62,118 nt of DNA, from positions 1 to 62,118 of the forward strand of contig CAMNEX010000001.1 of the NCBI GenBank assembly GCA_946536825.1, given 5' to 3'. This stretch comes from an uncultured Selenomonadales bacterium (GTDB taxonomy: Bacteria; Bacillota; Negativicutes; Selenomonadales; Selenomonadaceae). The notes under the pieces are model-generated. The model saw only the letters and a list, made by a program, of their open reading frames with translations, did no database searches and was not told the DNA's origin. The translations under genes and the position numbers were made by a program. Below, one piece after another: positions 6,331 through 61,499 of this stretch. Position 1 is the stretch's first letter; every line of letters starts with the position of its first letter.

Positions 6331-6362
6331 ACTCCCGCGGTAAAATCGTGGGAGCTTTTTTT
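6331..6362. terminator. Bidirectional terminator between flgE and pckA
   Basis: Hairpin ACTCCCGCGG..CGTGGGAGC with an A-run before and a T-run after. Confidence 0.6.
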
Positions 6363-6384
6363 ATTTCATTTAATAGCTTGTAAA

Positions 6385-8007: not shown

Positions 8008-8194
8008 AATTTTTCTTACCTCCAAAAATATATTTCGTTAATGATAAACTTTTGAGTTGTAAATGTCAATTAAAAAGCCTGCACAGATTTTCCGCCGCCT
8101 GAAATTTTTGTTATAAAGTTCAAAGTCAAGCGTCTTGCTTACGTTTAGTTCATGCTTTATAATAAAAATCAATAGAAATACGGAGGAAAAATGC

Positions 8195-8970: not shown

Positions 8971-8979
8971 TGATATAAT
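8971..8979 (+). promoter_or_regulatory. Extended -10 promoter (TGaTATAAT) for the 9014 gene
   Basis: TG at 8971-8972 and TATAAT at 8974-8979, about 35 nt upstream of ATG 9014. The listed ATG 8978 overlaps this box. Confidence 0.4.
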
Positions 8980-9013
8980 GGGGCGCGAAAAATTTTTTGG
9001 AAGGAGATTTTCA

Positions 9014-12000
9014 ATGGCGGAAACATATTTTCCCATGCTACCGAAAGTCAACGAAGAAATATCAAAAGTTCTCAAGGACACGGCGGGCGAATGGAAGGAA
9101 ACGGATATAAATTTTCTGCAGGGATTGGCGAACAGCCTTGACTGCGGGGAATCGATAAAGGAAATGGGCTCGGTTGATTCAATCCCTGACATGTGGGCGC
9201 GTCCTTTGCTGTTCAAAATGGCACTGTTCGATTTGGAGCCGACAAAACAATTTGTGACGGGCTTGCATGAAAAAGTTCGCGGGGAGTGGCGTGCACTTTT
9301 GGCAATGTTCGCGCTGAAAAATTACAAGCAACTCGACTTGAAGGCGGAGCAGGTAAATTTACTTGAAGAAAAATCCGAACTTGGAGAAATTTTAAAATCG
9401 CTCGCGCCGCAAGAATCATTGACGGGAAATAAAAATGCGTGGCTGACGGACGTATACATAATTTATTTTAACGGACAGCCGCTGGCAATGACTTCGCCAA
9501 CGACGTTGGTAACCTGCGCGGCGGATTATGAAAACGTATTCGCAGGGAAAATTTTCACGCCGTGGAGCGCGAATCAAAGAACTTTAAGCGACCCGATAAA
9601 ATTTTTAACGCCCGACGAACTTGCCGCGCTGAAAATTTGGTTGGAAAATCTTTACGAGAAAATACAGCGAGCGGAAAAAATCGGGGCGAAGGCAAAGGAA
9701 ATATCGAACGCGCTTTTGAAATGCTTGGCGGAATATGAGCGCGACGTAGCTTCCGCGCAGACTTCCGGGACGCAGAATTTTGAATTTGTCGCGTCGAATT
9801 TAAATTTACATGTGGGAGTGGCGCGGCTCCTCGACGAAACGATTAAAGGCAGGGAGGCGCGTTTTGAAGATTCCGCCGTCAGACTGCTGAACGGCGAGAA
9901 AAATTTGCTGTTGGTGTCGCCGGAATTGGTCAGAGATTTTGCGCGGTTTGAAGGCGTCGACGCGGCGCGGCTGGTCGTGTGGCAGGGAATAAGCGCGAAC
10001 GAAATAACCGACGAAAAACTTTCCGACAGGAAAAAAATCGGGCGAACAGCTTTAAAAGGCGCGGAATTTCGCAAGCCCGAAGATTTTTTCTTTGAGCGTA
10101 TGGCAGTCGTCGAGCCGGCGAACGCCTTCCCGAACTCACCGAAAATTCAAGGCGCGGAAACTTTATCGGAAAAAGATTTGACGCCGATTTTGCCGCTCAA
10201 GCGCGAGCTGTTTGAAATATTTTCGCCCGAAGAAATATCTGCGCGGCTGGGAATTTCGGACGATAAGGAAAATTTTTATCTGCATTTCAATTTCCCGCTC
10301 AGCGGAGTTGACGGCGACGGGAAAAATTTCCGCTGGACGAAGACTTATCCCAAGCGCGAGCTTATTTACATTGACCAGGAAGTTCCAGTCATTGAGATTT
10401 TCCCCGACTTTCGCCGCGCAGGTTGGAAGAATTATTTTCTGTACTATGAAAATTATCGGGCGCAATCGGGCGAAGAAAATCTTGCCGCGGATATTTATTT
10501 TGTTGAGCCGCTGAATCACGCGGAAAATTTCTTGACGAACAGATTCACGGCGCGGCTTGAGGCTTTCCCCGAAATTTTAATTTGCAAATACAATCCGCCG
10601 CCGCATGTCGGCAAGCCGCCTTACGAAGTGGGAGCAATCCTTTTGAATAAGCCGAAAAAAATCGAGCGGAATGCGGGCTTGAGTTGGAAAATCGGCGTGG
10701 ACTTCGGCACAAGTTCGACGATGGTTTTTTATGCCGAGAACGAAAATTCTCCGCGCCCATTGAATTTTTCGCCGCATTTGTACAAAGTCACCGAGAGCGG
10801 CGGAGCGCGTGCGCAAACTTATCGGCATTTCATACCGTCGCAAATGCCTGCGCGGGCGGACGGTTCATTTCTAAGCATATTCCATTTGCTCAATATCGGG
10901 GAGCTGAAAAAAATTCGGGCGTTGCAGGACGGGCACGTTTTCTTATTGAGCACGGAAAATACGCGGGTATTCGAGCAAATGGCGGCGCAAATCGACGCGA
11001 ATTTAAAATGGGCGGACGACACGCGGCAACGACGCAAAACGGCGGCTTACATAAGTCAAATTTGCCTGCAGGCGTCGGCGGAGGCGGTTGCAGTCGGTGC
11101 GGACAATATCCAATGGAATTTTTCATATCCGACGGCGTTTTCACAGGCGCAGAAAATTTCGTTCCAAGAAATATGTCGGGAGGCAGTCGGCGGCGCGGCT
11201 AATTTTTGGACGGAGAGCAAAGCGGCGGCGTATCACTTCAACAAAATGGACGGCAAAGCGGGCAATTTCGCGCAGGGTGCAATTTGCGTCGACATAGGCG
11301 CGGGCACGACCGATATTTCCGTAATCAGCGGGGAGCCGCCGCGCATTGTCTATCACACGTCGATAAGATACGCGGCGCGGCAAATGTTCAAGCCGATTTA
11401 TGACAATTACGAGCTGTTCGCGGGCGAAAAAATTTCCGACAAACTCCAAGACGAAACTAAGCGGCAAGCGGTAATTGATGCGGACATGCGCGAGCACAGC
11501 GAAAAATATTTGGCGGATTTAAAATATAAAACGGGCGTGGAGCAAATTAAAAACGTCCTGCAGGCGGCACAATTCGCGACGGCGGGCTTATTCCACTATC
11601 TGGGCGAGCTGATTAAAATTCTGCATGACTACGGGCATTATCGCGAGAAAAAAATCCCGCATGTATTCGTTGGCGGCAACGGCGCGAGGATTTTTAAATG
11701 GTTAGCGGGCGGCACCGAGCTTGACGGCAATATTTATCTCAACGTCCTTGAAAAAATTTTCGTGGCGGCGACCGGGCTTGAGGGTTACAAGAAATTTAAT
11801 CTACACATGAGTGCGCAACCGAAAATCGAGGTGGCGGCGGGCATGATAGTCGAGAAACCTGCCAACGACGAGGAATTTTTTGACGAAGAGAAAATTAATC
11901 GGGAAATGTTCGGAGCGGCGGACGAAATAATTTACTCGGCGGTATTGGCGGGCGCGGATTTTAATCAGGGCGGCGAGCGGCAAGCGGCGTTGTCGTTTAT

Positions 12001-12715
12001 CAGTGCGCATGACATTTCCGAGGGCGTCACGATTCAAACTTTGCGGGAGTTCAAAATTTTTGCCGAGCGATTTAACGGGGCGCAAAAACTTTGGGCGGCA
12101 GGAATTGATTTTGAGGAAGAAGAAATTGTCCGCGACGCCAATAATTTTTACGTTGACAAAAAGGGGCGCGATGTTAAAAAACTTTTGATCGAGCCGATTT
12201 TTATCGCCGAATTGAAAATGTTTTTAGGGACAAGGAATTTGGGCACGGGGAAAAGTAAAATTTCTTTGGCAGAAAAAAAATTTACGAGCGCAGAAAAATC
12301 CGTCGGAGAAAATTTTGTCAACGACTTCAACGCGCTGGAGAAATTAAGCGGCTTCAGTTCGCGACAGGCGCGGGAGAAATTTTTGACGCGCTACAAAGTG
12401 CGGGCGTTCAGCTGTGCGAACGTCGAAGAGCGCATGAACAATCCGAAAGTTGCGCCGAAATTTTCAACGGCGGCGAGCGTGGCGGGCGGCGATTTCTGGG
12501 CTTGTGCAGTCGACGGAAATATTTTCGCGGTCGTCCCCAACCTCAAGACTTACACGGAAAATCACCACACGGAGCGGGCGTTCGGAGCGGTTTTTGAATC
12601 GAATTTTGCGGACGGCACTTATTCGCGACTTCGCGTCGAGCGGGCGGCAGTCTTCGAGCTTGTCGGCAACGAGTGGATTTTAAAATTCGCAGGCAAAATC
12701 ATTTTGAGTAAATAG
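9014..12715 (+). CDS. Giant (1233 aa) Hsp70/actin-fold ATPase-like protein with large N- and C-terminal extensions
   Basis: Phosphate-1-like GVDFGTSSTMVF, phosphate-2-like CVDIGAGTTDISVI, adenosine-like HVFVGGNGARIF, in the canonical order. ATG 9014 lies behind GGAAGGAG. Own promoter and upstream terminator. Confidence 0.65.
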   Translation: MAETYFPMLPKVNEEISKVLKDTAGEWKETDINFLQGLANSLDCGESIKEMGSVDSIPDMWARPLLFKMALFDLEPTKQFVTGLHEKVRGEWRALLAMFALKNYKQLDLKAEQVNLLEEKSELGEILKSLAPQESLTGNKNAWLTDVYIIYFNGQPLAMTSPTTLVTCAADYENVFAGKIFTPWSANQRTLSDPIKFLTPDELAALKIWLENLYEKIQRAEKIGAKAKEISNALLKCLAEYERDVASAQTSGTQNFEFVASNLNLHVGVARLLDETIKGREARFEDSAVRLLNGEKNLLLVSPELVRDFARFEGVDAARLVVWQGISANEITDEKLSDRKKIGRTALKGAEFRKPEDFFFERMAVVEPANAFPNSPKIQGAETLSEKDLTPILPLKRELFEIFSPEEISARLGISDDKENFYLHFNFPLSGVDGDGKNFRWTKTYPKRELIYIDQEVPVIEIFPDFRRAGWKNYFLYYENYRAQSGEENLAADIYFVEPLNHAENFLTNRFTARLEAFPEILICKYNPPPHVGKPPYEVGAILLNKPKKIERNAGLSWKIGVDFGTSSTMVFYAENENSPRPLNFSPHLYKVTESGGARAQTYRHFIPSQMPARADGSFLSIFHLLNIGELKKIRALQDGHVFLLSTENTRVFEQMAAQIDANLKWADDTRQRRKTAAYISQICLQASAEAVAVGADNIQWNFSYPTAFSQAQKISFQEICREAVGGAANFWTESKAAAYHFNKMDGKAGNFAQGAICVDIGAGTTDISVISGEPPRIVYHTSIRYAARQMFKPIYDNYELFAGEKISDKLQDETKRQAVIDADMREHSEKYLADLKYKTGVEQIKNVLQAAQFATAGLFHYLGELIKILHDYGHYREKKIPHVFVGGNGARIFKWLAGGTELDGNIYLNVLEKIFVAATGLEGYKKFNLHMSAQPKIEVAAGMIVEKPANDEEFFDEEKINREMFGAADEIIYSAVLAGADFNQGGERQAALSFISAHDISEGVTIQTLREFKIFAERFNGAQKLWAAGIDFEEEEIVRDANNFYVDKKGRDVKKLLIEPIFIAELKMFLGTRNLGTGKSKISLAEKKFTSAEKSVGENFVNDFNALEKLSGFSSRQAREKFLTRYKVRAFSCANVEERMNNPKVAPKFSTAASVAGGDFWACAVDGNIFAVVPNLKTYTENHHTERAFGAVFESNFADGTYSRLRVERAAVFELVGNEWILKFAGKIILSK

Positions 12716-48631: not shown

Positions 48632-48701
48632 GCCGCCCGAAAAAGTAATTCTATTCGGTACAAAAAGTTATCTACGAGGTAACCACATAAAAAATTTTTT
48701 G

Positions 48702-48741
48702 TGTTATAATCTTTCAGCTGAAAAAATTTTTTGGCTGAAAG
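48702..48741 (+). promoter_or_regulatory. Extended -10 promoter (TGtTATAAT), immediately followed by a perfect inverted repeat (candidate operator)
   Basis: TG at 48702-48703 and TATAAT at 48705-48710. Inverted repeat CTTTCAGC (48711-48718) / GCTGAAAG (48734-48741) flanks the palindromic core AAAAAATTTTTT. Confidence 0.45.
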
Positions 48742-48764
48742 ATTTTTTTGACGGGAGGATTTTT

Positions 48765-49748
48765 GTGAACAGCTTTGATAAATTTGATGATATAGAACAT
48801 TTGGTTGAAGGGGTTCTCGTCGGGTTGCGGGCGCGAAAGGAAATTGAGCCGCTCCGAAAAAGAATTTCCGAGCTTGAAAAAGCGATAGAGGCTTTCCGAG
48901 AAGAGTGCATTAAACTGCGCGAGGAAAGAGATTTTGAAGCGGATTTGTATAAGGCTCTCAAAAATGATTACGACGAAATTAATCAGCAACTCGACGACGA
49001 ACAAAAAATTTCTTCGGAGCTTAAACGTTCGGTAAAAGCTTTGAGCGAGGAGCGCGACAAGTTGCGCGACGAAAAGGATTTTGAGACAAAGCTTTATAAA
49101 ATTCTCAGAAAAGATTATGACGAAGCCAATCAGCAACTCGACGAAGAGCAAAGAATTTCTTCGGAGCTTAGGCGTTCGGTAAAAACTTTAAGCGGCGAGC
49201 GCGATAATCTGCGCGATGAAAAAATTTCTCTGGAAAAGCAGGTCAAAACTCTGACGAATCGCCTTGACGACGCGAATAAAAAAATTTCCGAATCGGAAGC
49301 GAAACGCCGCGACGCCGAAGGCACCGCAAATTTCTATCGCGACACTTACGGCGAACTCGACGCGGCTTATAAAATTTACTCGACGCTGAACGGCGAGACG
49401 CGCTTTGATTTGGCGGGGATTTTCGGGGCGGGCGATACCGCAAAAGGTTTTTTGAGCGGCGCGGTTCAGGAGTCGCATTTGAATTCTTTCTGGGATTATG
49501 TCAGCCGCCACCCCGACGAAGAAAATTTGCAACGCCTGTTCGATTTTTGCTTTGCGGCGTTAAATCTCGGATTTCGCGAGGCTCCCTACACGCGGCTAAA
49601 CGTCGCCTGCGGAAATGATTTTGATGATGAATTCATGCGGCGCACTTCGCAAAGTCCGCAAATGGGCAACGTCGTCCGCGTCGTGTTTCAAGGCTATCGT
49701 TATTCTTCCGGCAACGTCGTCAAGAAAAGCGTTGTCGAATTGGGTTGA
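48765..49748 (+). CDS. Coiled-coil protein with a GrpE-like C-terminal domain (candidate nucleotide-exchange factor)
   Basis: GTG 48765, 6 nt after GGGAGG. ~190 aa of heptad-rich helix including two 49-aa repeats. C-terminus CGNDFDDEFMRRTSQSPQMGNVVRVVFQGYRYSSGNVVKKSVVEL follows the GrpE beta-domain pattern. Confidence 0.45.
   Translation: MNSFDKFDDIEHLVEGVLVGLRARKEIEPLRKRISELEKAIEAFREECIKLREERDFEADLYKALKNDYDEINQQLDDEQKISSELKRSVKALSEERDKLRDEKDFETKLYKILRKDYDEANQQLDEEQRISSELRRSVKTLSGERDNLRDEKISLEKQVKTLTNRLDDANKKISESEAKRRDAEGTANFYRDTYGELDAAYKIYSTLNGETRFDLAGIFGAGDTAKGFLSGAVQESHLNSFWDYVSRHPDEENLQRLFDFCFAALNLGFREAPYTRLNVACGNDFDDEFMRRTSQSPQMGNVVRVVFQGYRYSSGNVVKKSVVELG
48915..49208 (+). repeat. Two in-frame 147-bp (49-aa) tandem repeats inside the coiled-coil gene
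   Basis: LREERDFEADLYKALKNDYDEINQQLDDEQKISSELKRSVKALSEERDK versus LRDEKDFETKLYKILRKDYDEANQQLDEEQRISSELRRSVKTLSGERDN. A third unit begins but diverges. Confidence 0.8.
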
Positions 49749-49762: not shown

Positions 49763-52700
49763 ATGGATACAAAAAAAATCGCCGTCTTTCCCGTCGACGA
49801 AAAAACTTTTGCCGATTACAGCGACGCCAAACTCAAGCGCGTTATCAGCTTGGCGAGTGATAATTTCTCGGAAAAATTTTCGGAACTCTGCGCGGAATTC
49901 AAGACGCGCTTTGCCGCCAACGAATGGATTCAAATGGGCAACAAGGACGTTTATTATATCAACGATATTGTCGGGCTCATGCCCAATTTATATAATTTTG
50001 ATTCTGCTGGTCACTCTGAATATTATGGTTACAGTGAATCAACTGACAGATATAAATTCGGGGGATTCCAAGGCGATTTAATGACTGGAAACGAAGCTCG
50101 TAAGTGTTTCAATGACAGAATAAATTATTTCAGAAACAGTAACGGTTATATTGCTCATAAAAATGGAAATTGGTACGAAGGATTAACTTATAAAGATGGT
50201 TCGGAGTATTGGTGGATGTACACTAACAATTCTTATAAATATTCCATTGGTCTCCATAATACCAGAATGAATTACTATCATTACAATGTTTCTATGTTAA
50301 GCGTTCCGATTTATCGCTTTAACGGCAAGGACAGTTCGCCTGCGACAGCACTCGCCGCAATTTTTTATTGGTTTGAATACAACTTAACGCCCAAAACTGT
50401 CAAGTCAGCCAATACAAAAAAACTTTTTAACGAGCTGAAGATTTTCTACGCCACGCAAAAAGAATTCTTGAAAACTCAATGCGAGCAAATTGCCCTTGAC
50501 GAGAAAAAACTTTTCGAGGCAGTCAAGGCGGGCAAAACCTTCGATTTTCTGAAACTCGACTTCCTCAAGGAAAAAACTATCGACGGGCGCGAATACGAAA
50601 CTAATCTGCGCGACGAACTTTTATCCTGCGACAATCGGCGAGTGGCTCTTGACCGCTACGACGAAAAAATTTTGACCGATCCAAATCGCGGACACTGGGA
50701 TTTATGGGACTTGCCCGAAGAAGACGAGCACGGCATTAAACTCAATGAAACGATTTACGCCCGCAACCCCGCCGCCGATGTCAACACCGCCGGTATCGTC
50801 GGAATTGATTTCGGGACAAAATCAACCGTCGTAGTCTATGAAAACGAACGCGGCGAAATTATTCCGTTGCAGGTCGGCAAGGGCGATTACTCAAAAGGCA
50901 TCAAGGCTGAAAATTACGAGAACCCGACAATTATTGAATTCCGCCACATTGAAAATTTCCTTGAGGCATATTCCGCCCGCGCAGGTCGTCCAAAAACTTC
51001 GTGGAACGACGTAACTGTTTCGCACACCGCCCGAACAAATTTGCAGAACACCAACGACAGCAGTTTGTTCGCGTCCTTCTTCGAGAATATCAAGCAGTGG
51101 TGCGGCAATATCCAATACACGACAAAAATCCGCGACCACGACGGCACGGAAAAAGATTTGCCGCCCTTCCTCGACATTTCCAAGGACGAATTCAATCCCC
51201 TGGAATATTACGCCTATTATCTCGGCTCCTATATCAATCACATGCTCCGCCCCAATCATATTTTCATGAAATACATTTTGAGTTTCCCCGTCATGTACGA
51301 ACGCAATATCCGCGAGCGCATGTTGAAGGCTTTCCGCGCAGGCATTTTAAAATCTCTGCCGACCGCGCTTTTGGACAACGAAGACGCAATGAAAGATTTC
51401 CAAGTCGTCGAGGGCACGAGCGAGCCCGCCGCTTATGCTGTCACTGCGCTTGACGGTTACGGCTTTTTGAATGGCGAGGAAAATGACGGCGTTTATTATT
51501 CGGTCTTCGACTTCGGCGGCGGCACGACAGATTTTGATTTCGGCGTCTTGAAACTCGCTGAAGATGACGACGCAGATTTTTATGATTATGTCCTGACGCA
51601 TTTTGGGGCACACGGCGACAGGACGCTGGGCGGCGAAAATCTTTTGCGGCTTATGGCGTTTGAAATTTTCAAGGCGAACAGCGACAAACTTTTGAAGCCG
51701 CGAGAAAATTCCAAAGTGAAAATCCCGTTCACATGGGCGGCAGAAAAAACCGAGTTCGCCGGCTCTGAAGGCTTAATTCGTTCGTCGCAGGAAGCCAACC
51801 TCAATATGCATAATCTTATGGAGGCGTTGCGCCCAATTTGGGAGGCTCCAAACTCCGACGACGCTAAAAAAATTCTGGAATCGGGCACCGTAACTTTAAC
51901 GGTCTTCGACGACGCCGGAAAAGAACTCACCGGCTTTACTCTGTCAATCGGCTCGCAAAAAACCCCCGACGAAGTTAATCCCCTGCCGACAGTGCGGGCT
52001 AAGCCGACAACAACCGCCTTTGAAGTTCCTGCAACAGAATTCAACAAAATTTATAGTCAAGCGTGGGAAGAAGGGGATTTCAATGCAATAAAACAATTAG
52101 GCGAATGGGCAATCCGCGGACACAATGAATCGCTTGTAAATCTTGAAAAGCTTAGCACTGCCGATTATGTTAACGCAACTGAAATTTTATGGAAGCTTAA
52201 AGCAGATAAAAAAATTCCCGACGCGGAGCCGGAAGTCAAAGTTGAGCCGAAGAAAATTGCGCCGCTCGTCGACCTGAACAAAATTTTGCGCGAGAGAATT
52301 TGCCGCGGCATTGACAACTTTTTTATTTCCCTGCGTGACGCCTTCGACAAGATCAGCGGCGGCGAAGATAACGGCGTTGCGGCATTGAGCGACGTGACGG
52401 AGATTGGGATTTTCCTTGCGGGCAATTCGACGAAATCCGCGCTCGTCAAGAAACTTTTCGAGGAATACATTGACACGGAAAAGGGCAAGGCACGCAAGCT
52501 TTTGGGTTTCGGCAATCCGCAGAAAATGCCGCGTTTTGTTTTGTATTCGCCGCTGGGCACCGACGAGGCATATAAAATTCAGGAGTCAAAAGACTTGCCT
52601 GTCGACAAAAATAATTTCGCCGCTCCGACGGGCAAAACAGGCGTGGCGTTCGGGCTGTTGCGTTGCAGAGACGGCTCGGCAATTCGCGTCGTCGACATCA

Positions 52701-53044
52701 GCCCCGAAGGCAAGGACAAAAAGCAAGTTCCTTTCCAATTTTACGTCGGGCGGGCTCGCATGGGAAAATTTAAAATTGTGCTTGATAAGTCGACAAAGCT
52801 CGGCAAATGGTGTAAATTCATAGGCTCGAAGCTCGGAGTTTTCGACCTGCTTTACACCGACCAAAGCATTGCGGCGACGAATAACGCGCCCGCGTCTATT
52901 GCAAAGCGTTTGACAATTCACGTTGACGCCGACGCCGAAGCGAACGTTTACATAAAGGCGGTTGAATCGAACAAAATTTGTTATGCCGTTTCAAAGGGCG
53001 AGCCGACTGTTGAAATTGAAGGAAAGCTGATAACGTTGGATTAA
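49763..53044 (+). CDS. Giant (1093 aa) Hsp70/actin-fold ATPase-like protein
   Basis: GIDFGTKSTVVVYE (phosphate 1), VFDFGGGTTDFDFGVL (phosphate 2), HGDRTLGGENLL (compare DnaK GDTHLGGEDFD), IFLAGNSTKSALV (adenosine). ~330-aa N-terminal and ~250-aa C-terminal extensions. ATG 49763 after AAAGGA. Confidence 0.65.
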   Translation: MDTKKIAVFPVDEKTFADYSDAKLKRVISLASDNFSEKFSELCAEFKTRFAANEWIQMGNKDVYYINDIVGLMPNLYNFDSAGHSEYYGYSESTDRYKFGGFQGDLMTGNEARKCFNDRINYFRNSNGYIAHKNGNWYEGLTYKDGSEYWWMYTNNSYKYSIGLHNTRMNYYHYNVSMLSVPIYRFNGKDSSPATALAAIFYWFEYNLTPKTVKSANTKKLFNELKIFYATQKEFLKTQCEQIALDEKKLFEAVKAGKTFDFLKLDFLKEKTIDGREYETNLRDELLSCDNRRVALDRYDEKILTDPNRGHWDLWDLPEEDEHGIKLNETIYARNPAADVNTAGIVGIDFGTKSTVVVYENERGEIIPLQVGKGDYSKGIKAENYENPTIIEFRHIENFLEAYSARAGRPKTSWNDVTVSHTARTNLQNTNDSSLFASFFENIKQWCGNIQYTTKIRDHDGTEKDLPPFLDISKDEFNPLEYYAYYLGSYINHMLRPNHIFMKYILSFPVMYERNIRERMLKAFRAGILKSLPTALLDNEDAMKDFQVVEGTSEPAAYAVTALDGYGFLNGEENDGVYYSVFDFGGGTTDFDFGVLKLAEDDDADFYDYVLTHFGAHGDRTLGGENLLRLMAFEIFKANSDKLLKPRENSKVKIPFTWAAEKTEFAGSEGLIRSSQEANLNMHNLMEALRPIWEAPNSDDAKKILESGTVTLTVFDDAGKELTGFTLSIGSQKTPDEVNPLPTVRAKPTTTAFEVPATEFNKIYSQAWEEGDFNAIKQLGEWAIRGHNESLVNLEKLSTADYVNATEILWKLKADKKIPDAEPEVKVEPKKIAPLVDLNKILRERICRGIDNFFISLRDAFDKISGGEDNGVAALSDVTEIGIFLAGNSTKSALVKKLFEEYIDTEKGKARKLLGFGNPQKMPRFVLYSPLGTDEAYKIQESKDLPVDKNNFAAPTGKTGVAFGLLRCRDGSAIRVVDISPEGKDKKQVPFQFYVGRARMGKFKIVLDKSTKLGKWCKFIGSKLGVFDLLYTDQSIAATNNAPASIAKRLTIHVDADAEANVYIKAVESNKICYAVSKGEPTVEIEGKLITLD

Positions 53045-53117: not shown

Positions 53118-53465
53118 ATGGCAGATTTTTTGACGGAGCGAACGAAATTTTACTGCGTGGCGGCTCCGGCGGTGAATTTCTCAATTTCAATGTCGGGTAA
53201 AGTCACGCACCGAGGCGCAAAAGTTTTGACGACGGCGGCGAAGTTGTCAGGCAAAGGACTTTGTCCGAAATTAACGGCGTTTATGCAATCTCCGCAACAG
53301 TGCCAATTCAAACAAACGCCGTGGCTGAATTTCGATTTAAAATGCAAAGCCGAATCAAAAAATTTGTTGATGGCGGATTCCTTTTGTAGCTGTCCTGTAC
53401 CTATATGCGCCGGCACGGTCGTGAAAGTCCGCTTGGCAAGGGCGCAAGGATTTAAACAAGCATAA
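53118..53465 (+). CDS. PAAR-like (DUF4280-like) small Cys-patterned protein
   Basis: 115 aa. FYCVAAP…GKGLCPKL…CQFKQTPW…SFCSCPVPICAGTVVKV resembles the DUF4280 Cys/Trp spacing. ATGGAGG RBS. Confidence 0.45.
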   Translation: MADFLTERTKFYCVAAPAVNFSISMSGKVTHRGAKVLTTAAKLSGKGLCPKLTAFMQSPQQCQFKQTPWLNFDLKCKAESKNLLMADSFCSCPVPICAGTVVKVRLARAQGFKQA

Positions 53466-53477: not shown

Positions 53478-55730
53478 ATGGCGAACACATGGGATAAAAT
53501 TCCGCAAACACATCGGGCGATTTTGTTCGAGGAGTTCACTCACCCCGCTGACACTTCGGCGAAAAATTTATACAGTATTTTAGACCTATACGACGACTTC
53601 GATCCAGGCAATAATGAACTGCACAAAGACATTGAGAAAAAGCTTGAGGTTCGGAGTTTCAACGAATTTTTGGAAAAGTTTCAGCCGAAAGTTTTTGAGT
53701 GCGTCACGGGCACGGAAAACGACGTTCCGTTTTTTCAGTACACCGACGACCCAATGGAGGCAAAGAAAAATAACGGGCGCGAAATAAAAATAACCTGTCA
53801 CGCCTATTACGAAATGCTCGTGAACATGTACACCCAAAAAGGCGACAGCGGCATTGCAAACATTGAATTCGATGATGAAAAAATTCGCGAGATACTCACG
53901 CCCAAGCGCGAGATTGAAGCCCTTTACGATACGCGCCAAAAAATTCCCCTGCTCATGGAAAAATATGATGAACGACTTGCCAAAAATGAAAATGCCGCGC
54001 CCATTGCCAAACGTCTGAAGGCAATTCGCAGAAACGCCCTTGACCAGCTGAAAAATCCCAGGACGTTAATGGCAATCAGCCTTGACGATACCGAGAGGAA
54101 AATTAAGGCGGCAGATGAAAAACTTCTGCAGTTGAAGGCGGCAGAATCAAATAGCGACGACAAGCCAAAAAAATTACTCAGCGGACGCGGCGGTTTCGAT
54201 CAAGACGGACATTGGATTTTAATTCCCGCCAAGGCAAGTACGCCCGACTCCGACGAAAGTAGCGACGCAAAAAGCGACCCCGACGGCGACAACGCAAACA
54301 AATTTGCCAAAATAATTCAAGGCGATTTAAATAAACACGCGGCGGACGAAAGTAATTTCACGAAAGCTTTGGTTGTCTCGGCTTACACCGGCAGAGAACT
54401 TACCAATCCGTTTGAGAATAAGGACAGCACCGCGCTCGCCGTATATCGCGCCGAACTCGTCGAGAATAAAAAAATTATTCAAAACAGTTTCAAGCAGGCG
54501 CAGGAAGCTTTTATAAAAGTTCTGTCCGACAGCGTCCGGAAAATGTTGTGCGTGAAAATTTTCTTCGATCATGCCACGGTTGGCAAGGGCGGCGATGACG
54601 CAAAACTCCCGAAGGTCGGCTTAATCGTCGCGAATTGCAAGGCGGATAAACTCATTGACAATAAAATCAAAGGCAAATTTGAAGCTACAATGCAACATTT
54701 GGGCTTGGGCGTCAGCGACAAAAATAAACTCTGGTTCGCGATTTTGCCGCATGTCTTTCACGAAGATTTTTCGGACGGCGGCGGCGCAAGTCAAAATGCC
54801 GATCTTGATGACGATTTATATGACGACGACGACAATCAAGATATAACTTCTGCGAACGGCACGGATTTTTCTGCGGCGAAGTCGATTTTAAGAATCATGG
54901 AAGATTGCAAGATTATGACGGTTTTTAACTTCGCGTCCACCAGTCCTTCAATGACTTTTTCGGGCATTAACTCGGAAGTCATAAAAAAGCTTGAGGACGA
55001 ACTTGAGCCGCTCAATTACGAACACGCGGTTTACGCCCTGCCGAATTTTACGATTATGAAAGAAGGGACCGTTTCTCTCGGCAAAAAAAATGAAACCGAC
55101 GCGCCGAAAATTTCCGTCCCCGCAATGTACATTGACGCGGCGTATGTGGCGGCGGGTTTGCTTATCGCCGCTCAGCAACCGGAATTTTGGATAAACAACG
55201 GCTTTAAGGACGCCTTCATAAAAGAAAATTCCTGCGTTCGCATTGACCTTGAGGAAGACAAAATTACCGCCAAATTGCTGACGAAATTTAATCGCGAACG
55301 CTCAATCGCCTGGAGCGCGGACGTTATCAATGCTTTCACGGCGAATCGTTTCGGCTTTGCCTTCGACGGCGATCAAAGATACGACGAACGAGCGGACAGA
55401 TTTATTAACCGCACTTACATTCTTAACGCCAGAACGCTCAAGCGCAAGGACGGCGAATATCAAGCGATTTTCCGCACGCTCATGAAAGATTTTATCAAAG
55501 CTTATTTGAAAACTTACGGCTCAAAACTCAAAGCTCCGCAACGCGACGATTTCCTTAACAAAGTCGTTGCCGAGTGGAAGCAGCAATCCAAAAAATATAA
55601 ATCTAAGGGCGATATAATCAATCTCATGCTCCGAGACGGCGAAGATATTTCCAAGGAAGAAAATACCAGCAATTTGAAAGTTGAACTTTCGGGCGGCGAG
55701 GAAATGCTTGACGTTGAAATTGTCGATTAA
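53478..55730 (+). CDS. Candidate fused TssB/TssC-like contractile sheath protein
   Basis: N-terminus has a TssB-like segment KKLEVRSFNEFLEKFQPKVFECV. The C-terminal ~330 aa follow the TssC-like order of hydrophobic blocks (…ILRIMEDCKIMTVFNFAS…, …AVYALPNFTIM…, …MYIDAAYVAAGLLIA…, …TYILNART…). Two acidic low-complexity linkers lie between. AAGGAGG RBS. Confidence 0.4.
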   Translation: MANTWDKIPQTHRAILFEEFTHPADTSAKNLYSILDLYDDFDPGNNELHKDIEKKLEVRSFNEFLEKFQPKVFECVTGTENDVPFFQYTDDPMEAKKNNGREIKITCHAYYEMLVNMYTQKGDSGIANIEFDDEKIREILTPKREIEALYDTRQKIPLLMEKYDERLAKNENAAPIAKRLKAIRRNALDQLKNPRTLMAISLDDTERKIKAADEKLLQLKAAESNSDDKPKKLLSGRGGFDQDGHWILIPAKASTPDSDESSDAKSDPDGDNANKFAKIIQGDLNKHAADESNFTKALVVSAYTGRELTNPFENKDSTALAVYRAELVENKKIIQNSFKQAQEAFIKVLSDSVRKMLCVKIFFDHATVGKGGDDAKLPKVGLIVANCKADKLIDNKIKGKFEATMQHLGLGVSDKNKLWFAILPHVFHEDFSDGGGASQNADLDDDLYDDDDNQDITSANGTDFSAAKSILRIMEDCKIMTVFNFASTSPSMTFSGINSEVIKKLEDELEPLNYEHAVYALPNFTIMKEGTVSLGKKNETDAPKISVPAMYIDAAYVAAGLLIAAQQPEFWINNGFKDAFIKENSCVRIDLEEDKITAKLLTKFNRERSIAWSADVINAFTANRFGFAFDGDQRYDERADRFINRTYILNARTLKRKDGEYQAIFRTLMKDFIKAYLKTYGSKLKAPQRDDFLNKVVAEWKQQSKKYKSKGDIINLMLRDGEDISKEENTSNLKVELSGGEEMLDVEIVD

Positions 55731-55745: not shown

Positions 55746-56174
55746 ATGATTTATTACGAATTGAAAATTGAGTCCTCAAGCGAGACTATCGAGATTAACG
55801 AAGACAACGCGATTGATTATGCAGATGTTGTGCTTGACACGCTCGACAACAGCACGCAGAAAAAATCCAGTTCACTTTTGGCGCGAATGACCATTCAAGG
55901 CAACATAACTTCTTCGATTAATGACAGCCTGATTAAAATTTCGGAATGGGCTCGCGACCTCAAAAAAGAGACGACTTATCGCAAGGTAACTTTGGTGATA
56001 AAGGAGGACAAAGCGGGCGTTATCCTGCGGACGTATGAAATTCCCGATATGTTTGTCTGCGACTACAGCGAAATTTACCATACGCCCAAAGAAGGCACCG
56101 ATCCGGAGCCGTTTCAATTCGTGCTCTCTCTCAATCAAAGAGAAAATAAGCTTGAAGAATTCAACACGTATTGA
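55746..56174 (+). CDS. Hcp/TssD-like tube protein
   Basis: 142 aa. The pattern …ARMTIQGNITSS…LIKISEWA…YRKVTLVIKEDKAGVILRTYEIPDMFVCDYSEIYH…PFQFVLSLNQ… mirrors Bacteroidetes-type TssD proteins. Sits between the sheath-like and VgrG-like genes. Confidence 0.5.
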   Translation: MIYYELKIESSSETIEINEDNAIDYADVVLDTLDNSTQKKSSSLLARMTIQGNITSSINDSLIKISEWARDLKKETTYRKVTLVIKEDKAGVILRTYEIPDMFVCDYSEIYHTPKEGTDPEPFQFVLSLNQRENKLEEFNTY

Positions 56175-56189: not shown

Positions 56190-57593
56190 ATGAAAGTTCG
56201 TGGCTTGGGCGAGGAAAATTATTTTGAAAAAATTTTGGTCGGCAAGGCGGCTAATCGGCACAGCTTTTGCGAATTCAGACAGCGCACGCCCGAAGAAAAT
56301 TTTTCTGTTTATCAAAATGCAGTAGGTAAAGAAATAGGCGTCGAAACGGACAGCGGACGCCCAATTTTTTTTGGCGAAGTGACGGAAGTTTTAATCGAGC
56401 AAACCTACCACGGCAATTACGTCGAAATTCGCGCCGAATCAACTTCGCTGAAAACCGACGAGGAGCCGCAGACGCGCATTTTCCAAAATCCCGAAAAAAA
56501 ATTCGGCGAAGTTTTGAACTCTGAACGCTTGAAACTCAAAAACTGCGCGGTTGCGCTTGACGATAAGTTGAAGTCGCAACCTTGCAAAGAAATTATTCTG
56601 CAGGACGCCGAAACAAATTTTGAGTTCGTGAAAAGATTGGCGGCGTGGCAGGGGCGGCGCGTTTGGGTAAAGGACACGTGGCAAGGGAAATGCGAATTAA
56701 AAGTTGCGGCTTGCTCCGACGAATCGGCGAATAAAATTTCTCAAGACGAAATCATCAGCTTGAAAGTCGGTCGGCGCGGGAAAATTCGCACAGCCAAACT
56801 TGTCGCGCAGAAATATTTTGAGCTCGGTCGCATTTTGAGTTTGGGCGATAATCCCTGCAAATATTTGATCGTTGGGCTTGAAATTTATCAGGAACGCGGC
56901 GTCGACAGAATGTGCTACGCTTTGGAGGAATTTAAAAATCTTGAGCCGGCAAAACTTTGCTCCGCGACGCCGATTAAGCTTAAGGCGACAGTCAAAGACA
57001 TAACCGACAAAGAAAATTTCGGACGGCTTCAAGTGCAATTCGAGATTGAGGACAAGGACGAAAAAAAATCGTGGTTGCCTTATCGGACGCCTTACAGCGG
57101 AATAATTTTTTTGCCGGAAATCGGCGAGACTGTCGAAATTTTTTACACGCAGGGCGAATGCTACATTGCCTCGACTTTGCGGACGAAAACTCTTGACGAC
57201 GAATTTAAAAACGTCAAGGATAAATTTATCGGCAATAATCGCAAGCAAAGAATTTTTTTCCGCGAGAAATCGCTTGAGATTAAGTCGCTTGAAACTTCGA
57301 TTTTCATGGACGAAAAAAAAATTGTCCTGAGCGTCGGCACAAATAAAATCGTTATGGACGAGCAGGGAATATCGATAAAAACGGGCGGCAAGCTCAATGC
57401 GGAAATCGCCAAGGAAGTTTTGCTGAAGGCGGGCGAATCCTTAACCGAGCAAATCGGCAAAGATATTTCGTCGAAGGCGGGCGGAAAAATTTCTGTCGAT
57501 AGCGGCGGCAATACTTCGTTCAAAGTCGGCGGGAAATTCGAGGCGGAAGCGAGTTCTGCAAAAATTAAAGGTAGCAGTGTCGAGTTGGGATAG
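56190..57593 (+). CDS. VgrG-like spike protein (gpD/gp27-like plus gp5 OB-fold plus short beta-helix), no effector extension
   Basis: OB-fold hallmark …ATVKDITDKENFGRLQVQFEIEDKDEKKSWLPYRTPYSGIIFLPEIGETVEIFYTQGE…IAS. C-terminal repeats of the K-x-GGK type. Confidence 0.7.
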   Translation: MKVRGLGEENYFEKILVGKAANRHSFCEFRQRTPEENFSVYQNAVGKEIGVETDSGRPIFFGEVTEVLIEQTYHGNYVEIRAESTSLKTDEEPQTRIFQNPEKKFGEVLNSERLKLKNCAVALDDKLKSQPCKEIILQDAETNFEFVKRLAAWQGRRVWVKDTWQGKCELKVAACSDESANKISQDEIISLKVGRRGKIRTAKLVAQKYFELGRILSLGDNPCKYLIVGLEIYQERGVDRMCYALEEFKNLEPAKLCSATPIKLKATVKDITDKENFGRLQVQFEIEDKDEKKSWLPYRTPYSGIIFLPEIGETVEIFYTQGECYIASTLRTKTLDDEFKNVKDKFIGNNRKQRIFFREKSLEIKSLETSIFMDEKKIVLSVGTNKIVMDEQGISIKTGGKLNAEIAKEVLLKAGESLTEQIGKDISSKAGGKISVDSGGNTSFKVGGKFEAEASSAKIKGSSVELG

Positions 57594-57604: not shown

Positions 57605-58696
57605 ATGGAAATGACGCGGCAGGAGGCGGAAAAATTTTTAAAGCGAGTCGAAAAGGAATTAAACGCCGAGCAAAAGGAAACTTTAAAAAAATTGAAGAGC
57701 CGCGTAGAAGAAGAATTGCGCGGCGCGGAAAAATTTATCGAGGTTGTGACGGACGTGGAGGAGACAGAAAATCTTTTGCCGCTTGAAGTCGGCGACGGAA
57801 TTTTTTTCGCTAATCAGCCGCCGCTTGAAACAGGCGAGCCGAAAACGCTTCCTTACGAGCCGTTTTTTTTATGCGTACCTTACGAAGAATTTTTTTCCTT
57901 ACTGAATAAAGATTTTCGCGGCGCGGGCTTTACCTATCAGCTCAAGCCGGATTATCGTTTTGTCGAGGTGGAGGAAAAAATTTATCGGGCGGCGAGCCTT
58001 TACAATGTGCCGTTGCAAATTTATTCGCCGTATGCAAGGCGGGCGGTCGACATTTGCATTTTCGGCGAAACTACCGAGCTTAATTTCAAGCTGTCGGAAA
58101 ATAATTTGGCGGGCAAATTGCTTACGGATAAAAAATTTTATTGGAATGTCGAAATAGATTCTGTGTCGTGGGATTCAATGCAGACGGTCGGGAAGCTTTA
58201 TGAATATCGCTGTTCGGCGGAGGATTTAAGTTTTGTCCTGCCCTGCCGCGATTCTTCGCTTGACGCCGATATAGAAGTTAGGCGAGCCGACGGGCAAATT
58301 ATTTTTCGGACGCCGCGAGAATTCCCGACGGAAAAGGGCGAGCGCATAAAAATTTTGCCGATAAAAAATAAAATTGCGTCGAGAATTTTGAGCAAAAAAA
58401 GACTTCGGACGCAAGGCGATATTGAGTTTGTCTTGAGCGGACTTTCTCGCGACGGCTATTCCTGTCACTTCGGGCAATTCGGCGACGCGGCGGAAAATAT
58501 CACGCCATACACGGCGGAGCATAAATATTTTTCTTCGGCGGACGAAAATTTGTTGCGGGCTAAAAAATATCTGCCGCAATGCACGGTTAAATTTGTCGGC
58601 GCGGAATTTTTCCTGGCGGATTATGCGAACTTTGTCCTGAAATTTTTGGAGGAAAATTATCCTGAATTTAATTGGGCGGGTGAGCGCGATGGATAA
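57605..58696 (+). CDS. Hypothetical protein (363 aa), operon member
   Basis: TAGGAGG RBS, 11 nt after the VgrG-like stop. Helical N-terminus (EKFLKRVEKELNAEQKETLKKLK), then a mixed domain. No motif recognised. Confidence 0.6.
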   Translation: MEMTRQEAEKFLKRVEKELNAEQKETLKKLKSRVEEELRGAEKFIEVVTDVEETENLLPLEVGDGIFFANQPPLETGEPKTLPYEPFFLCVPYEEFFSLLNKDFRGAGFTYQLKPDYRFVEVEEKIYRAASLYNVPLQIYSPYARRAVDICIFGETTELNFKLSENNLAGKLLTDKKFYWNVEIDSVSWDSMQTVGKLYEYRCSAEDLSFVLPCRDSSLDADIEVRRADGQIIFRTPREFPTEKGERIKILPIKNKIASRILSKKRLRTQGDIEFVLSGLSRDGYSCHFGQFGDAAENITPYTAEHKYFSSADENLLRAKKYLPQCTVKFVGAEFFLADYANFVLKFLEENYPEFNWAGERDG

Positions 58697-59153
58697 GGAA
58701 GAATTATTCGTCACGGCGGAGGAAGTCGCAAGAGATTTTCGCGGCGGCTTAAAAAATCTGCGCGGGAATTTTATCGAAGAACTTTTACGCGAGGAATTGA
58801 ATCAAGGTTATTACGGCGCGGAGGCTAAAAAAATTTTCGGCGCATTGACGCAAGCCGAGCAAGATTTAATTTTGCGGGCACTGAAACTCCAAGAGCAATG
58901 CGAAGGTCGGCAATTAAAATTCATGTTGGCGTTGAAAAGTCTTTTCCCGCACAGCGAAATTTATTTTCACACCGGAAAATTTTTGTTGTGTTTGCCCGAA
59001 GAAAAATCAGCGGCGGCGTTGGAGAAAATCGAACTGATAAAAATTTTGTTTATGGCGGCGGGCAATTCGGAGCTTGAAATTTATTTCGGGGAACATTTCG
59101 GGGTATTCGGCACGCCGCGGACAATGCGCCTCGACGAAATGATTTTGTATTGA
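58689..59153 (+). CDS. Hypothetical protein (~154 aa), translationally coupled
   Basis: Overlaps the upstream stop by 8 nt (or by 17 nt if GTG 58680 is used). Mostly helical. No motif recognised. Confidence 0.55.
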   Translation: MDKEELFVTAEEVARDFRGGLKNLRGNFIEELLREELNQGYYGAEAKKIFGALTQAEQDLILRALKLQEQCEGRQLKFMLALKSLFPHSEIYFHTGKFLLCLPEEKSAAALEKIELIKILFMAAGNSELEIYFGEHFGVFGTPRTMRLDEMILY

Positions 59154-59167: not shown

Positions 59168-60742
59168 ATGGGAGTGGCAATCGGTTTGGACTTCGGCACG
59201 ACAAATTCCGTTGTGACTTACGAAGATAAGGACGGGAAATTGAAAAGCTTTAAAGTAAACGGCTCGCCGCTTATCCCCAGCGTGATTTTTTTCAAGACGC
59301 GGGAAGATTATCTTATCGGGCAAAAGGCGTTGAACAGGAGCGGGCAAAATCCCGCGGGCGCAATTTCCGGCTTCAAAACCAAACTCAACGAAGACAATAT
59401 GCCCTATGAAGTGATTTTATCAGACGGCTCAAAGTTTAAAATTCTGCCGAAGGTCGCCGTAAAATATTTTTTGAACAAATTGATGAGCGAAGTCCAAGAA
59501 TATTTGCTGAAGAAAAGAATTGCCGACGCGGCGATTGACCGCGCAGTCATAACCGTGCCGACAAAATTTAACGACAAGGCAAATCAAGCAATAAAATCGG
59601 CGGCGGCGCAGGCAATGAATTTGAGTTTCAAACAAATAAAACTCGTCTACGAGCCGACAGCGGCGGCAGTTGCGGCGCATAGTGACGACGAACCCGACGC
59701 AAAAAATTTATTGATTTACGACTTCGGCGGCGGGACTTTCGACGTTTCCTTGATTCAAAAGGACGGCAAAGTTTTCAAGCAGATAAAAACCGACGGCGAC
59801 CCGAAATGCGGCGGCGATTTACTCACCGGCATATTGGCGAAAAATTTGTTGGAAGGCGCGAACGACGAATACGGAACGGATTTTCCGTGGGATTTTGAAG
59901 ACCTCGACGAAGACAGCCTCAGCGAACTTAAATATAAAGAAAATATTGCGGCGATTGTCAAAGAGGCGAACACGGCGAAAATTTATCTCAGCGAAAATAC
60001 CGATACGGACGTTACGTTTCCGTTTTGGATATCGGAATCGAGGAGCGAAAATTACAATGTCAACGTGAGCCGCAAAGATTTTGAAAGAATGATTCGCAAG
60101 GAAATAAATCACACGGCGGAAATAACGCGGCGCGTTGTCGACAGCGACGAGGCAAAAGCGGCGGGCGGCATTGACAAAATTATAATTGCGGGCGGGTCGG
60201 GGCAAATTCCCATGATTCGCGATGTCTTAAGGGATAAACTCGGAAATTTCTCAATCAATCGCTCGGAAGAAATTTCGACGCTGATAAGTCGCGGCGCGGC
60301 GATTCTGGCAAAAAATATTGAGTCGCTGGAAAATGTGACTGCGCAAAAAACTACGGTGCAGTTGGGAATTTCTTCGACACAAGGCATGGGCTACGGAATT
60401 TTTCAAACGATTATCGAGGCGGAGCGCGATCTTCCCTGCGAAAATTCTTGCGATTTCCGATTAATGGAAGATAATCAGCGGCTGTTGAAAATTTCTTACT
60501 ACGAGCGCGACATTAAAAATTATCCCCGCGCCGAACGCATTGACGACGCGGGAATTACGCAAGTTGACGAACTCGAAGTGGAATTGCCGCCGGGGCTGAA
60601 AAAATCTGACACCGTGATTAAAATTACTTTCGCCGTGCAAAAGGATTCAAGTCTTGAACTTTCCGCCGAGGTTTTGAGGAACGACGGAAGCAAAATCAGC
60701 GAGGAGAAACTTAAAGTCAACAAAGTTTCCGATTTGTTCTAA
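59168..60742 (+). CDS. Hsp70-family protein (NBD plus beta substrate-binding domain, no helical lid or EEVD)
   Basis: GLDFGTTNSVV, IYDFGGGTFDVSLI, DGDPKCGGDLL, IIIAGGSGQIPMIRD. SBD-beta-like end …TVIKITFAVQKDSSLELSAEV…. ATG 59168 after GGAGG. Confidence 0.8.
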   Translation: MGVAIGLDFGTTNSVVTYEDKDGKLKSFKVNGSPLIPSVIFFKTREDYLIGQKALNRSGQNPAGAISGFKTKLNEDNMPYEVILSDGSKFKILPKVAVKYFLNKLMSEVQEYLLKKRIADAAIDRAVITVPTKFNDKANQAIKSAAAQAMNLSFKQIKLVYEPTAAAVAAHSDDEPDAKNLLIYDFGGGTFDVSLIQKDGKVFKQIKTDGDPKCGGDLLTGILAKNLLEGANDEYGTDFPWDFEDLDEDSLSELKYKENIAAIVKEANTAKIYLSENTDTDVTFPFWISESRSENYNVNVSRKDFERMIRKEINHTAEITRRVVDSDEAKAAGGIDKIIIAGGSGQIPMIRDVLRDKLGNFSINRSEEISTLISRGAAILAKNIESLENVTAQKTTVQLGISSTQGMGYGIFQTIIEAERDLPCENSCDFRLMEDNQRLLKISYYERDIKNYPRAERIDDAGITQVDELEVELPPGLKKSDTVIKITFAVQKDSSLELSAEVLRNDGSKISEEKLKVNKVSDLF

Positions 60743-60755: not shown

Positions 60756-61499
60756 TTGTCGTTATGGGAATGGATTAAAAATTTACTTTATCGCCTGCGC
60801 GGCGGCAAGCCGAAACGTTCGCCAAAAAAAATTATTCAAAGTCACAGACCGCAAATTAAATCGGAACCGCCGCCGTGGAAGTCCGTTTATTCGTCGCCAA
60901 TCTCTGAACCGCGGCGGGAAGAAATTTCCGAGCCAAAGAAAGAATTCGTCTTGGACATAAGAAACGAAGCCGACATGGAAAATTATTTGGGCAAGTTGAG
61001 AAATCGCGGTGCCTTTGAAAGTTTTCGGCGCGATTTTCCATTGCCGTGGCTGAATACACATTTATCCAGAGCGGACGACGTTTTGTCGAAAATCGCTTTG
61101 CTTAAAGATTTTGATGAGGAGGAATTTAATTCAAAATTGGCGAGCAAGGTTTGCAATTTGTCAAAACACATGCTCGCCATTTACAGAGACGCGGAAAATT
61201 CTCCTCAGCTCAACGAAAACTCGCGGCAACTGCTAAGAAGTCTTGTCGAAAATTATCTTTCGGAAATTGGCTTGACGAAAAAAATTTTTAAAGTCGGCGA
61301 CGCTTACAACGATTGGGCAGATTTGAATCTGGATACTTCTTCTGCCGAATTTATCGCTACCGATAATCGGACTTTGGGCTCGACCCTTGCCGCAATAAAA
61401 ATTCAACCGCATGTAATTTCTTATCGGAACGAGTTCGGCGAAATTAAACAGCTTATTTTCGGCGGCTTGTGCAGAGCTTACAAATTTAAGGAGGTTTGA
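60756..61499 (+). CDS. Hypothetical protein with a basic/Pro-rich N-terminus and a possible GrpE-like C-terminal end
   Basis: TTG 60756, 8 nt after AAGGAGG. C-terminus VGDAYNDWADLN…LAAIKIQPHVISYRNEFGEIKQLIFGGLCRAYKF loosely follows the GrpE beta-domain pattern. Confidence 0.35.
   Translation: MSLWEWIKNLLYRLRGGKPKRSPKKIIQSHRPQIKSEPPPWKSVYSSPISEPRREEISEPKKEFVLDIRNEADMENYLGKLRNRGAFESFRRDFPLPWLNTHLSRADDVLSKIALLKDFDEEEFNSKLASKVCNLSKHMLAIYRDAENSPQLNENSRQLLRSLVENYLSEIGLTKKIFKVGDAYNDWADLNLDTSSAEFIATDNRTLGSTLAAIKIQPHVISYRNEFGEIKQLIFGGLCRAYKFKEV

Follow-up and report, generated by a model that had tools for sequence, protein, structure and literature searches.

A divergent GrpE-like protein encoded next to a giant Hsp70-like ATPase at the head of a VgrG/PAAR-like toxin cluster in Selenomonadales

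What is the protein encoded directly upstream of a giant Hsp70-like ATPase in an uncultured Selenomonadales bacterium, and which partner does it serve? The question is raised by a gene at positions 48765 to 49748 (plus strand) of a stretch of 62,118 nucleotides (nt), the forward strand of contig CAMNEX010000001.1 (GCA_946536825.1), which is called here the window. An earlier sequence-only reading had proposed that this gene encodes an expanded GrpE-like protein, dedicated as a nucleotide-exchange factor to the ATPase of 1093 amino acids (aa) encoded beside it at 49763 to 53044 on the same strand. Here, we report that the conserved part of the family to which the 327-aa protein belongs is exactly the beta domain of GrpE. 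We consider it fairly likely that this strongly divergent protein belongs to the GrpE lineage and acts as a dedicated exchange factor for the giant ATPase.

The open reading frame (ORF) listed for the gene spans 48699-49748, and its most plausible start is the GTG codon at 48765. This codon sits 5 nt past a Shine-Dalgarno sequence, GGGAGGA (48753-48759, plus strand, read from the sequence), and the resulting N-terminus, MNSFDKFDDIEHL, aligns with that of every close homologue. The 327-aa product can be divided into three parts. A long coiled-coil stalk (48837-49382, approximately residues 25-206) accounts for about 180 residues; it matches only coiled-coil families, and its C-terminal part forms one continuous helix in the structural model. 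It is followed by a helical region specific to the family (49392-49568, residues 210-268), made of four short helices with invariant GIFG, WDY and FDF motifs, and by a C-terminal beta domain (49587-49742, residues 275-326), for which both hhalign and Foldseek indicate homology with the beta domain by which GrpE binds DnaK. In GrpE itself, the coiled-coil stalk terminates in a four-helix bundle and is combined with a beta domain; most contacts with DnaK are made by this domain, which rotates subdomain IIB and thereby wedges open the nucleotide cleft (PMC4753570). Stalk helix, helical region and C-terminal beta domain thus come in the same order in both proteins.

The resemblance to GrpE is significant at the level of the family and not for the single sequence. 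When the C-terminal 145 aa served as profile in an exhaustive search, 869 cluster representatives were retrieved at E ≤ 1e-3, 498 of them at E ≤ 1e-10. Across this family the conserved domain is always C-terminal, and the region before it is very variable in length. The close relatives of the C-terminal 149 aa (n = 30, 214-260 aa) are all, when named, a 'hypothetical protein' of Selenomonadaceae. Among those that were aligned, the GrpE family PF01025 is the most often matched family (18 of 22 at E ≤ 1), and it is also matched at E ≤ 0.01 by 11 of 127 diverse family members. One relative, P0023, which shares 58% identity with the window protein in the C-terminal domain, reaches 29.1 bits for a gathering score of 25.8 bits; its best stretch aligns residues 145-227 with profile positions 75-162 of 165. 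For a second relative, P0024, residues 149-227 align with profile positions 83-163. Since these stretches map to the C-terminal end of the profile, the PF01025 signal does not come from the coiled coil alone.

For profile-profile comparison, we used as a reference ten annotated GrpE records, from E. coli, Aeromonas, Sinorhizobium, Neisseria, Acinetobacter, Arthrobacter, Streptomyces, Listeria, Acaryochloris and Sphingomonas. When the C-termini of 127 family members were compared with these genuine GrpEs, hhalign returned a probability of 93.7% and P = 1.8e-7 over 54 columns, which coincide exactly with the beta domain (positions 101-157 of the family versus 133-190 of GrpE). The real alignment scored 49.8, to be compared with 12.4 for the reversed control and with a maximum of 15.8 (mean 10.8) for 60 column shuffles. 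In the same register, P decreased with the depth of the profile, from 0.013 for the single sequence to 1e-3 for the Selenomonad clade and 1.8e-7 for the whole family.

The predicted structure points in the same direction. A first AlphaFold run, built on 21 close homologues, gave a pLDDT (per-residue confidence score) of only about 46-51 in the beta domain, and Foldseek found nothing significant with that model, GrpE being ranked fourth with E = 1.7. It was superseded by a run on the C-terminal fragment with the 127-sequence alignment, which reached a mean pLDDT of 97.4 and a pTM (predicted template-modelling score) of 0.86. In this second model, a long helix (fragment residues 2-48) leads into four short helices at 52-110, after which six strands occupy residues 117-168. 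The four top Foldseek matches in the PDB are all GrpE proteins, with alignments of 159-178 columns: chains A (E = 1.9e-3, probability 0.98) and B (E = 2.1e-3, probability 0.96) of T. thermophilus GrpE (3A6M), human GrpEL1 (9BLT chain C, E = 2.7e-3, probability 0.92) and M. tuberculosis GrpE (8GB3 chain E, E = 1.4e-2, probability 0.93). The fifth match drops to E = 0.86 and a probability of 0.09, so that GrpE proteins are the only significant structural neighbours of the model. A search of a viral structure library with the AlphaFold model returned no match.

The sequence-only reading fares well against these results. Its start codon agrees with the one retained here and its quotation of the C-terminal sequence is exact; the long helix followed by a helical segment that it had described is borne out by the model, which ends with the six-stranded beta domain. 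The identification as GrpE-like is supported by PF01025 on the relatives, by profile-profile comparison and by the structural model. The GrpE motif spacing that it had recognised in the C-terminal region holds roughly; in the window protein the loop is 4 residues shorter, one residue is inserted, the histidine is replaced by methionine and the arginine by lysine. The consensus of the 127 members reads F-D-x-x-x-H-x-R-x-S-x-S-x-x-x-G-x-I-x-x-V-L-L-x-G-Y-x-x-x-x-x-G-K-x-x-K-K-S-x-V and retains the GrpE histidine, the window clade carrying Met at this position. F-D, H, G-x-I/V and G-Y are thus preserved in the family consensus, whereas K replaces R and S replaces A. If these substitutions are allowed for, a beta-domain signature common to the family and GrpE can be written F-D...(H)...G-x-V/I...G-Y...K/R-x-S/A-x-V. 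Finally, what would have left the GrpE assignment without ground, a missing profile match together with an unrelated fold, is not what was found: relatives match PF01025, and the model retrieves only GrpE.

The next gene opens with an ATG at 49763, after AAAGGAAAA and 14 nt past the stop codon of the GrpE-like gene. Its 1093-aa product carries the motifs of an Hsp70-type nucleotide site: a phosphate-1 motif, IVGIDFGTKSTVV, at 50795-50833, a phosphate-2 motif, FDFGGGTTD, at 51506-51532, preceded by SEPAAYA, the equivalent of the 'EPTAAA' of Hsp70, and an adenosine motif, FLAGNSTKS, at 52412-52438 (all on the plus strand). Residues D349, G351, T352, E554, D583, the GGGT stretch and G887 are invariant in 37 ATPase sequences. 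When the profile of these 37 sequences was compared with the PDB, all 37 matches were nucleotide-binding domains of Hsp70 proteins (BiP, mortalin, DnaK, Hsp70-1A), with a weak best E of 0.019. NCBIfam gave only weak HscA/DnaK matches, at E of about 1e-3 and covering residues 554-648, and hhalign linked the ATPase to the bona fide Hsp70 of the window with a probability of 93.2% and P = 3e-7. Nothing matched residues 1-340 and 900-1093. The homologues of this ATPase form at least 1,456 protein clusters, all unnamed or 'hypothetical', and the named family members belong to Selenomonadaceae, Quinella, Selenomonas and Megamonas hypermegale. The 1093-aa protein is thus a very derived Hsp70-like ATPase, apparently capable of catalysis, in which all the ATP-binding motifs of the Hsp70/actin fold are retained.

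The two genes are strictly linked. In eight of eight independent contexts the GrpE-like gene lies immediately 5′ of a homologue of the giant ATPase gene, as had been noted for the window, and the gap between them is only about 10-17 nt. A scan of GTDB genomes with the single protein recovered two Selenomonadales metagenome-assembled genomes only. Neighbouring genes differ from one context to another, as described below, and the unit that is conserved across all of them is the two-gene pair of GrpE-like protein and ATPase. The relatives' matches to PF01025, the hhalign result and the structural model, together with the strict adjacency to an Hsp70-like ATPase whose motifs are intact, are the reasons for which we maintain the GrpE-like reading.

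Several observations weigh against this reading and have to be set beside it. On the 327-aa protein itself, neither Pfam (E ≤ 1) nor NCBIfam reports GrpE; Pfam, NCBIfam, PADLOC and PHROGs return coiled-coil families only (SMC, Rad50, tape-measure and similar). A match to PF01025, expected in the C-terminal ~150 aa, was not obtained on the single sequence, the last 149 aa showing no Pfam match at all even at E ≤ 10. The score of P0023 is a sum of weak stretches, none of which passes the threshold alone. The confident alignment to GrpE is limited to the beta domain, where two GrpE positions are substituted in the window protein (His to Met in the window clade, and Arg to Lys). A Selenomonad-only family hidden Markov model (HMM) compared with PDB sequences did not reach GrpE, and the full-length HMM of the diverse family was swamped by coiled coils and retrieved no GrpE chains from the PDB. 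As for the structure, the Foldseek E-values are marginal (about 2e-3) and the template-modelling scores low (0.27-0.40), with large rigid-body differences, and the helical region comprises four helices, against the two that GrpE contributes to its bundle. The low scores fit different angles between stalk and domain combined with the remodelled helical part. Finally, neither PF00012 nor any other Pfam family matches the 1093-aa ATPase, and not every Hsp70 uses GrpE, as illustrated by HscA and HscC of E. coli (PMC4753570).

How do other explanations account for the same data? The weakness of the single-protein evidence would be expected if the likeness to GrpE were due to chance or convergence, in an unrelated coiled-coil protein that happens to end with a small beta domain: there is no direct Pfam match on the window protein, the single-sequence P is only 0.013 and the Foldseek E-values lie above 1e-3. 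Nonetheless, GrpE is the one answer on which three independent methods agree, no signal comes from the shuffle controls, the order of domains is collinear with that of GrpE, and the linkage of the gene to an Hsp70-like ATPase is strict. We therefore regard such a coincidence as very improbable. It is also conceivable that the protein is an exchange factor that serves another Hsp70, either the conventional one encoded at 59168-60742 or the DnaK of the host. This would provide a co-factor for the bona fide PF00012 Hsp70 of the cluster, which has no recognisable nucleotide-exchange factor beside it. Against it, the giant ATPase adjoins the GrpE-like gene in every context, including those with dynamin and leucine-rich repeat (LRR) proteins or with a P-loop protein, and at gaps of only about 10-17 nt; no second Hsp70 is visible in the latter contexts (B and C below), which makes service to a second Hsp70 an improbable role.

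The main rival is of another kind, since it accepts the descent from GrpE and denies the exchange. In this scenario the protein would be a structural adaptor or stalk, whose beta domain binds the ATPase while the coiled coil, or an LRR fusion, tethers or spaces it. The variable length of the stalk speaks for such a role, with members of 184-388 aa, a 49-aa duplication in the window and LRR-fused forms of 740 and 574 aa; so do the remodelling of the helical region relative to GrpE and the substitutions at key GrpE positions. On the other hand, the beta domain is the most conserved part of the protein and the sole part recognisably shared with GrpE, and in GrpE it is precisely this domain that opens the cleft (PMC4753570). 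The motifs of the ATPase are also intact, so that a nucleotide cycle in need of a reset is plausible. On balance, a tether devoid of exchange activity seems to us somewhat unlikely, and we retain the dedicated exchange factor as the preferred reading.

If the protein is indeed an exchange factor for its neighbour, the following scheme can be proposed. The GrpE-like protein would be co-transcribed with the giant ATPase and would most likely act on it. It probably forms a homodimer through its coiled-coil stalk and would bind the ATPase physically. By analogy with GrpE and DnaK, its beta domain would enter the nucleotide cleft of the ATPase and tilt the subdomain equivalent to IIB; this tilt would lead to the release of ADP and reset the ATPase. 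Nucleotide-exchange activity on the ATPase is thus what we infer from the comparison. The pair could then be viewed as a portable two-gene ATP-cycling module that would have been recruited to different effector systems, and in the window it may take part in toxin delivery by loading or driving the VgrG/PAAR-like spike.

In the window copy, an in-frame tandem duplication detected with Tandem Repeats Finder (48956-49222, plus strand; 147 nt in 1.8 copies, 84% identity) adds 49 aa to the stalk, with 33 of 49 aa identical between the copies. The second copy is missing from the close relatives of 214-260 aa, and the extra length is therefore due to a recent in-frame duplication in the window allele. 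What the sequence-only reading had called an expansion is thus specific to this copy; stalk length varies freely throughout the family, within the ranges given above. Ahead of the coiled coil (48765-48870, plus strand) lies a motif, FDDxExLLEGxLxGLKARKEIEPLR, that is kept among Selenomonad relatives. As the flexible N-terminus of GrpE contacts the substrate site of DnaK (PMC4753570), this motif may be a partner-binding segment.

Upstream of the gene, the last gene of an opp-type peptide ATP-binding cassette (ABC) transporter operon is found. Between this operon and the GrpE-like gene falls a 17-bp hairpin rich in A/T, with a run of T after it (48708-48744, plus strand), detected in a scan for terminator-like elements and as a 17-nt ×2 repeat by Tandem Repeats Finder. 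A two-hexamer scan found no plus-strand promoter for the GrpE-like gene. A candidate extended -10 element, TGTTATAAT, lies at 48702-48710 (plus strand), 55 nt 5′ of the start codon, and is mentioned as a lead only; it overlaps the 5′ end of the hairpin with its T tail, just 5′ of the Shine-Dalgarno sequence. The region 48702-48744 could be the opp terminator, a promoter of the cluster or a leader structure.

Downstream, the GrpE-like/ATPase pair heads a polymorphic-toxin cluster of the VgrG-like/PAAR-like (DUF4280) type, all of it on the plus strand. The ATPase gene is followed by a gene for a 115-aa PAAR-like DUF4280 protein (53118-53465, weak Pfam match) and by one for a 750-aa protein (53478-55730), conserved in L001, L017 and L019 (L numbers designate the homologous loci) and without match in Pfam, NCBIfam, PADLOC, PHROGs or the PDB. 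This protein, kept in all VgrG-type loci at 36-68% identity and marked by a low-complexity acidic insert, is the largest of the cluster's unexplained components. Next comes a conserved 142-aa protein (55746-56174), for which Pfam, NCBIfam, PHROGs and PADLOC gave no match and a PDB search none of significance. Its conserved C-terminal motif, RTY-IP-MFV-DY-E-Y ... F-L-L-Q, resembles Bacteroidetes TssD/Hcp-like tube proteins of type VI secretion systems (T6SS), a resemblance that no profile or PDB match supports. The VgrG-like spike protein (56190-57593) contains a Phage_base_V OB domain and gives weak DUF2345 and GPD matches. Two proteins of 363 and 157 aa, conserved across loci (57605-59153), precede the second, conventional Hsp70-family protein (59168-60742; PF00012, E = 2e-52), 3′ of which lies a conserved 247-aa protein (60756-61499). 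The 363-, 157- and 247-aa products match nothing in Pfam, NCBIfam, PHROGs or PADLOC. The 142-, 157-, 363- and 247-aa proteins were also considered as possible GrpE-like proteins and rejected, hhalign against GrpE showing nothing. The cluster therefore combines two Hsp70-type ATPases with one recognisable co-factor. Neither a canonical grpE nor the grpE-dnaK-dnaJ operon of the organism is present in the window, and Pfam scans of its proteins recognised no J-domain gene near the pair.

The assignment to polymorphic toxin delivery comes from the sister locus L019. There, at 6430-8678, the small DUF4280 gene is replaced by one encoding a 561-aa fusion of DUF4280 with an AHH nuclease, the AHH domain scoring 29.1 bits, above its cut-off, and an Imm11 immunity gene comes next. 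By sequence, no gene of the cluster can be recognised as coding for the sheath, tube or baseplate of T6SS or of extracellular contractile injection systems (eCIS), or for their recycling AAA+ ATPase. The possibility of a defence system was discarded, PADLOC giving no meaningful match.

This arrangement, context A, is found in the window and in L001-L003, L016, L017 and L019, with a DUF4280 PAAR-like protein, a 740-750-aa protein, a 110-142-aa protein and a VgrG-like protein. L016 is a near-identical copy of the window cluster that begins inside the ATPase gene. Wherever the contig continues beyond the VgrG-like gene, a homologue of the 363-aa protein is present, and the 157-aa protein and the conventional Hsp70 follow in all loci except the truncated L019. 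Flanking genes vary between genomes (the opp operon in the window, Fe-ADH/RtcB in L001), so that the cluster behaves as an island. Context B groups L015, L020 and L021. The first two carry a dynamin-like GTPase and BspA-type LRR proteins; at L015 8384-10774 and L020 7638-10019, distant members of the pair have these neighbours and no VgrG or PAAR genes. In L021, it is the GrpE-like protein itself that carries the LRR, as an LRR_5 domain fused at the N-terminus of a 740-aa product (66-2288), and a 766-aa coiled-coil protein comes after the ATPase. Context C corresponds to L022 and is characterised by a HerA/FtsK-like P-loop protein; this 1030-aa protein, encoded after the pair (3718-6810), has a HerA/FtsK/TrwB-like P-loop motif with weak Pfam matches. 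In L014 and L018 the contig breaks off inside the ATPase gene.

A further protein of the actin/Hsp70 fold is encoded elsewhere in the window (8978-12715, plus strand). It is 1245 aa long, has a weak MreB_Mbl match at residues 718-826 and a phosphate-2 motif, ICVDIGAGTTDISV; a weak hhalign link (66.9%, P = 5e-5) connects it with the phosphate-1 region of the giant ATPase. The gene 5′ of it encodes an ABC-transporter ATPase and not a GrpE-like protein.

Compared with genuine GrpE proteins (PF01025, the E. coli structure 1DKG, and 3A6M, 8GB3 and 9BLT), the 327-aa protein is likewise encoded beside an Hsp70-type ATPase. The family nevertheless differs from GrpE by a much longer and variable coiled coil, by a partner that is not DnaK but an ATPase of about 1,000 aa unrecognised by Pfam, and by its location in a toxin or conflict locus rather than in a heat-shock operon, with no J-domain protein recognised next to it. 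A thematic precedent exists in the conflict systems of Firmicutes and Actinobacteria centred on GAP1-N2 GTPases, which include a dedicated HSP70 and GrpE (Kaur, Burroughs, Iyer and Aravind 2020, PMC7159879). As in the window, a non-housekeeping Hsp70/GrpE pair is dedicated to a conflict-type locus, and some of these systems add a second HSP70-domain protein (PMC7159879); moreover, some members of the family described here adjoin a dynamin-like GTPase. The precedent differs in that its HSP70 and GrpE are recognisable and occur with the GAP1-N2 GTPase and FNIII/DnaJ proteins (PMC7159879), whereas both partners here are too divergent for Pfam and their neighbours are VgrG/PAAR-like or dynamin/BspA-LRR proteins.

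The cluster itself can be related to another set of loci. In Firmicutes, DUF4280 (PAAR_H2) genes adjoin VgrG genes in neighbourhoods where T6SS and eCIS genes are lacking, and these orphan DUF4280-VgrG (Phage_GPD) loci were proposed to belong to an unknown phage-like system for translocation (Lays 2016, PMC5349215; Zhang 2021, PMC8651086). The window resembles them by its DUF4280 PAAR-like gene in the neighbourhood of a VgrG-like gene with a DUF2345-type extension, by the lack of detected T6SS/eCIS core genes nearby, and by the PAAR-toxin fusion with its immunity gene in the sister locus. It differs by its Hsp70-like and GrpE-like genes, which are not mentioned as neighbours in either study (PMC5349215, PMC8651086); we found no literature linking Hsp70/GrpE-like genes to DUF4280/VgrG loci. 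The named hosts of the window-type pair also set it apart, as they are Selenomonadaceae, within the Negativicutes. Selenomonadaceae are diderm Firmicutes.

It is tempting to go one step further and to suppose that the pair and the second Hsp70 jointly form the energy-converting core of a sheathless, hitherto uncharacterised VgrG/PAAR-like toxin translocation apparatus of Firmicutes/Negativicutes. We put this forward only tentatively, as an unlikely proposal at present. Were it true, the 'unknown phage-like translocation system' would be a machine driven by an Hsp70-type ATPase cycle, and its drive would differ from sheath contraction combined with a ClpV-type AAA+ ATPase.

Altogether, these results reveal a large unannotated family of GrpE-like proteins and its obligate partner family of Hsp70-like ATPases of about 1,000 residues, and suggest that the GrpE solution to nucleotide exchange may have been reused outside the DnaK system. 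For the PAAR-like and VgrG-like genes that Firmicutes carry without T6SS or eCIS machinery, a concrete hypothesis can be drawn from the window locus, whose cluster begins with the genes of a putative exchange factor and an Hsp70-type ATPase; this opens the question of the power source to experiment.

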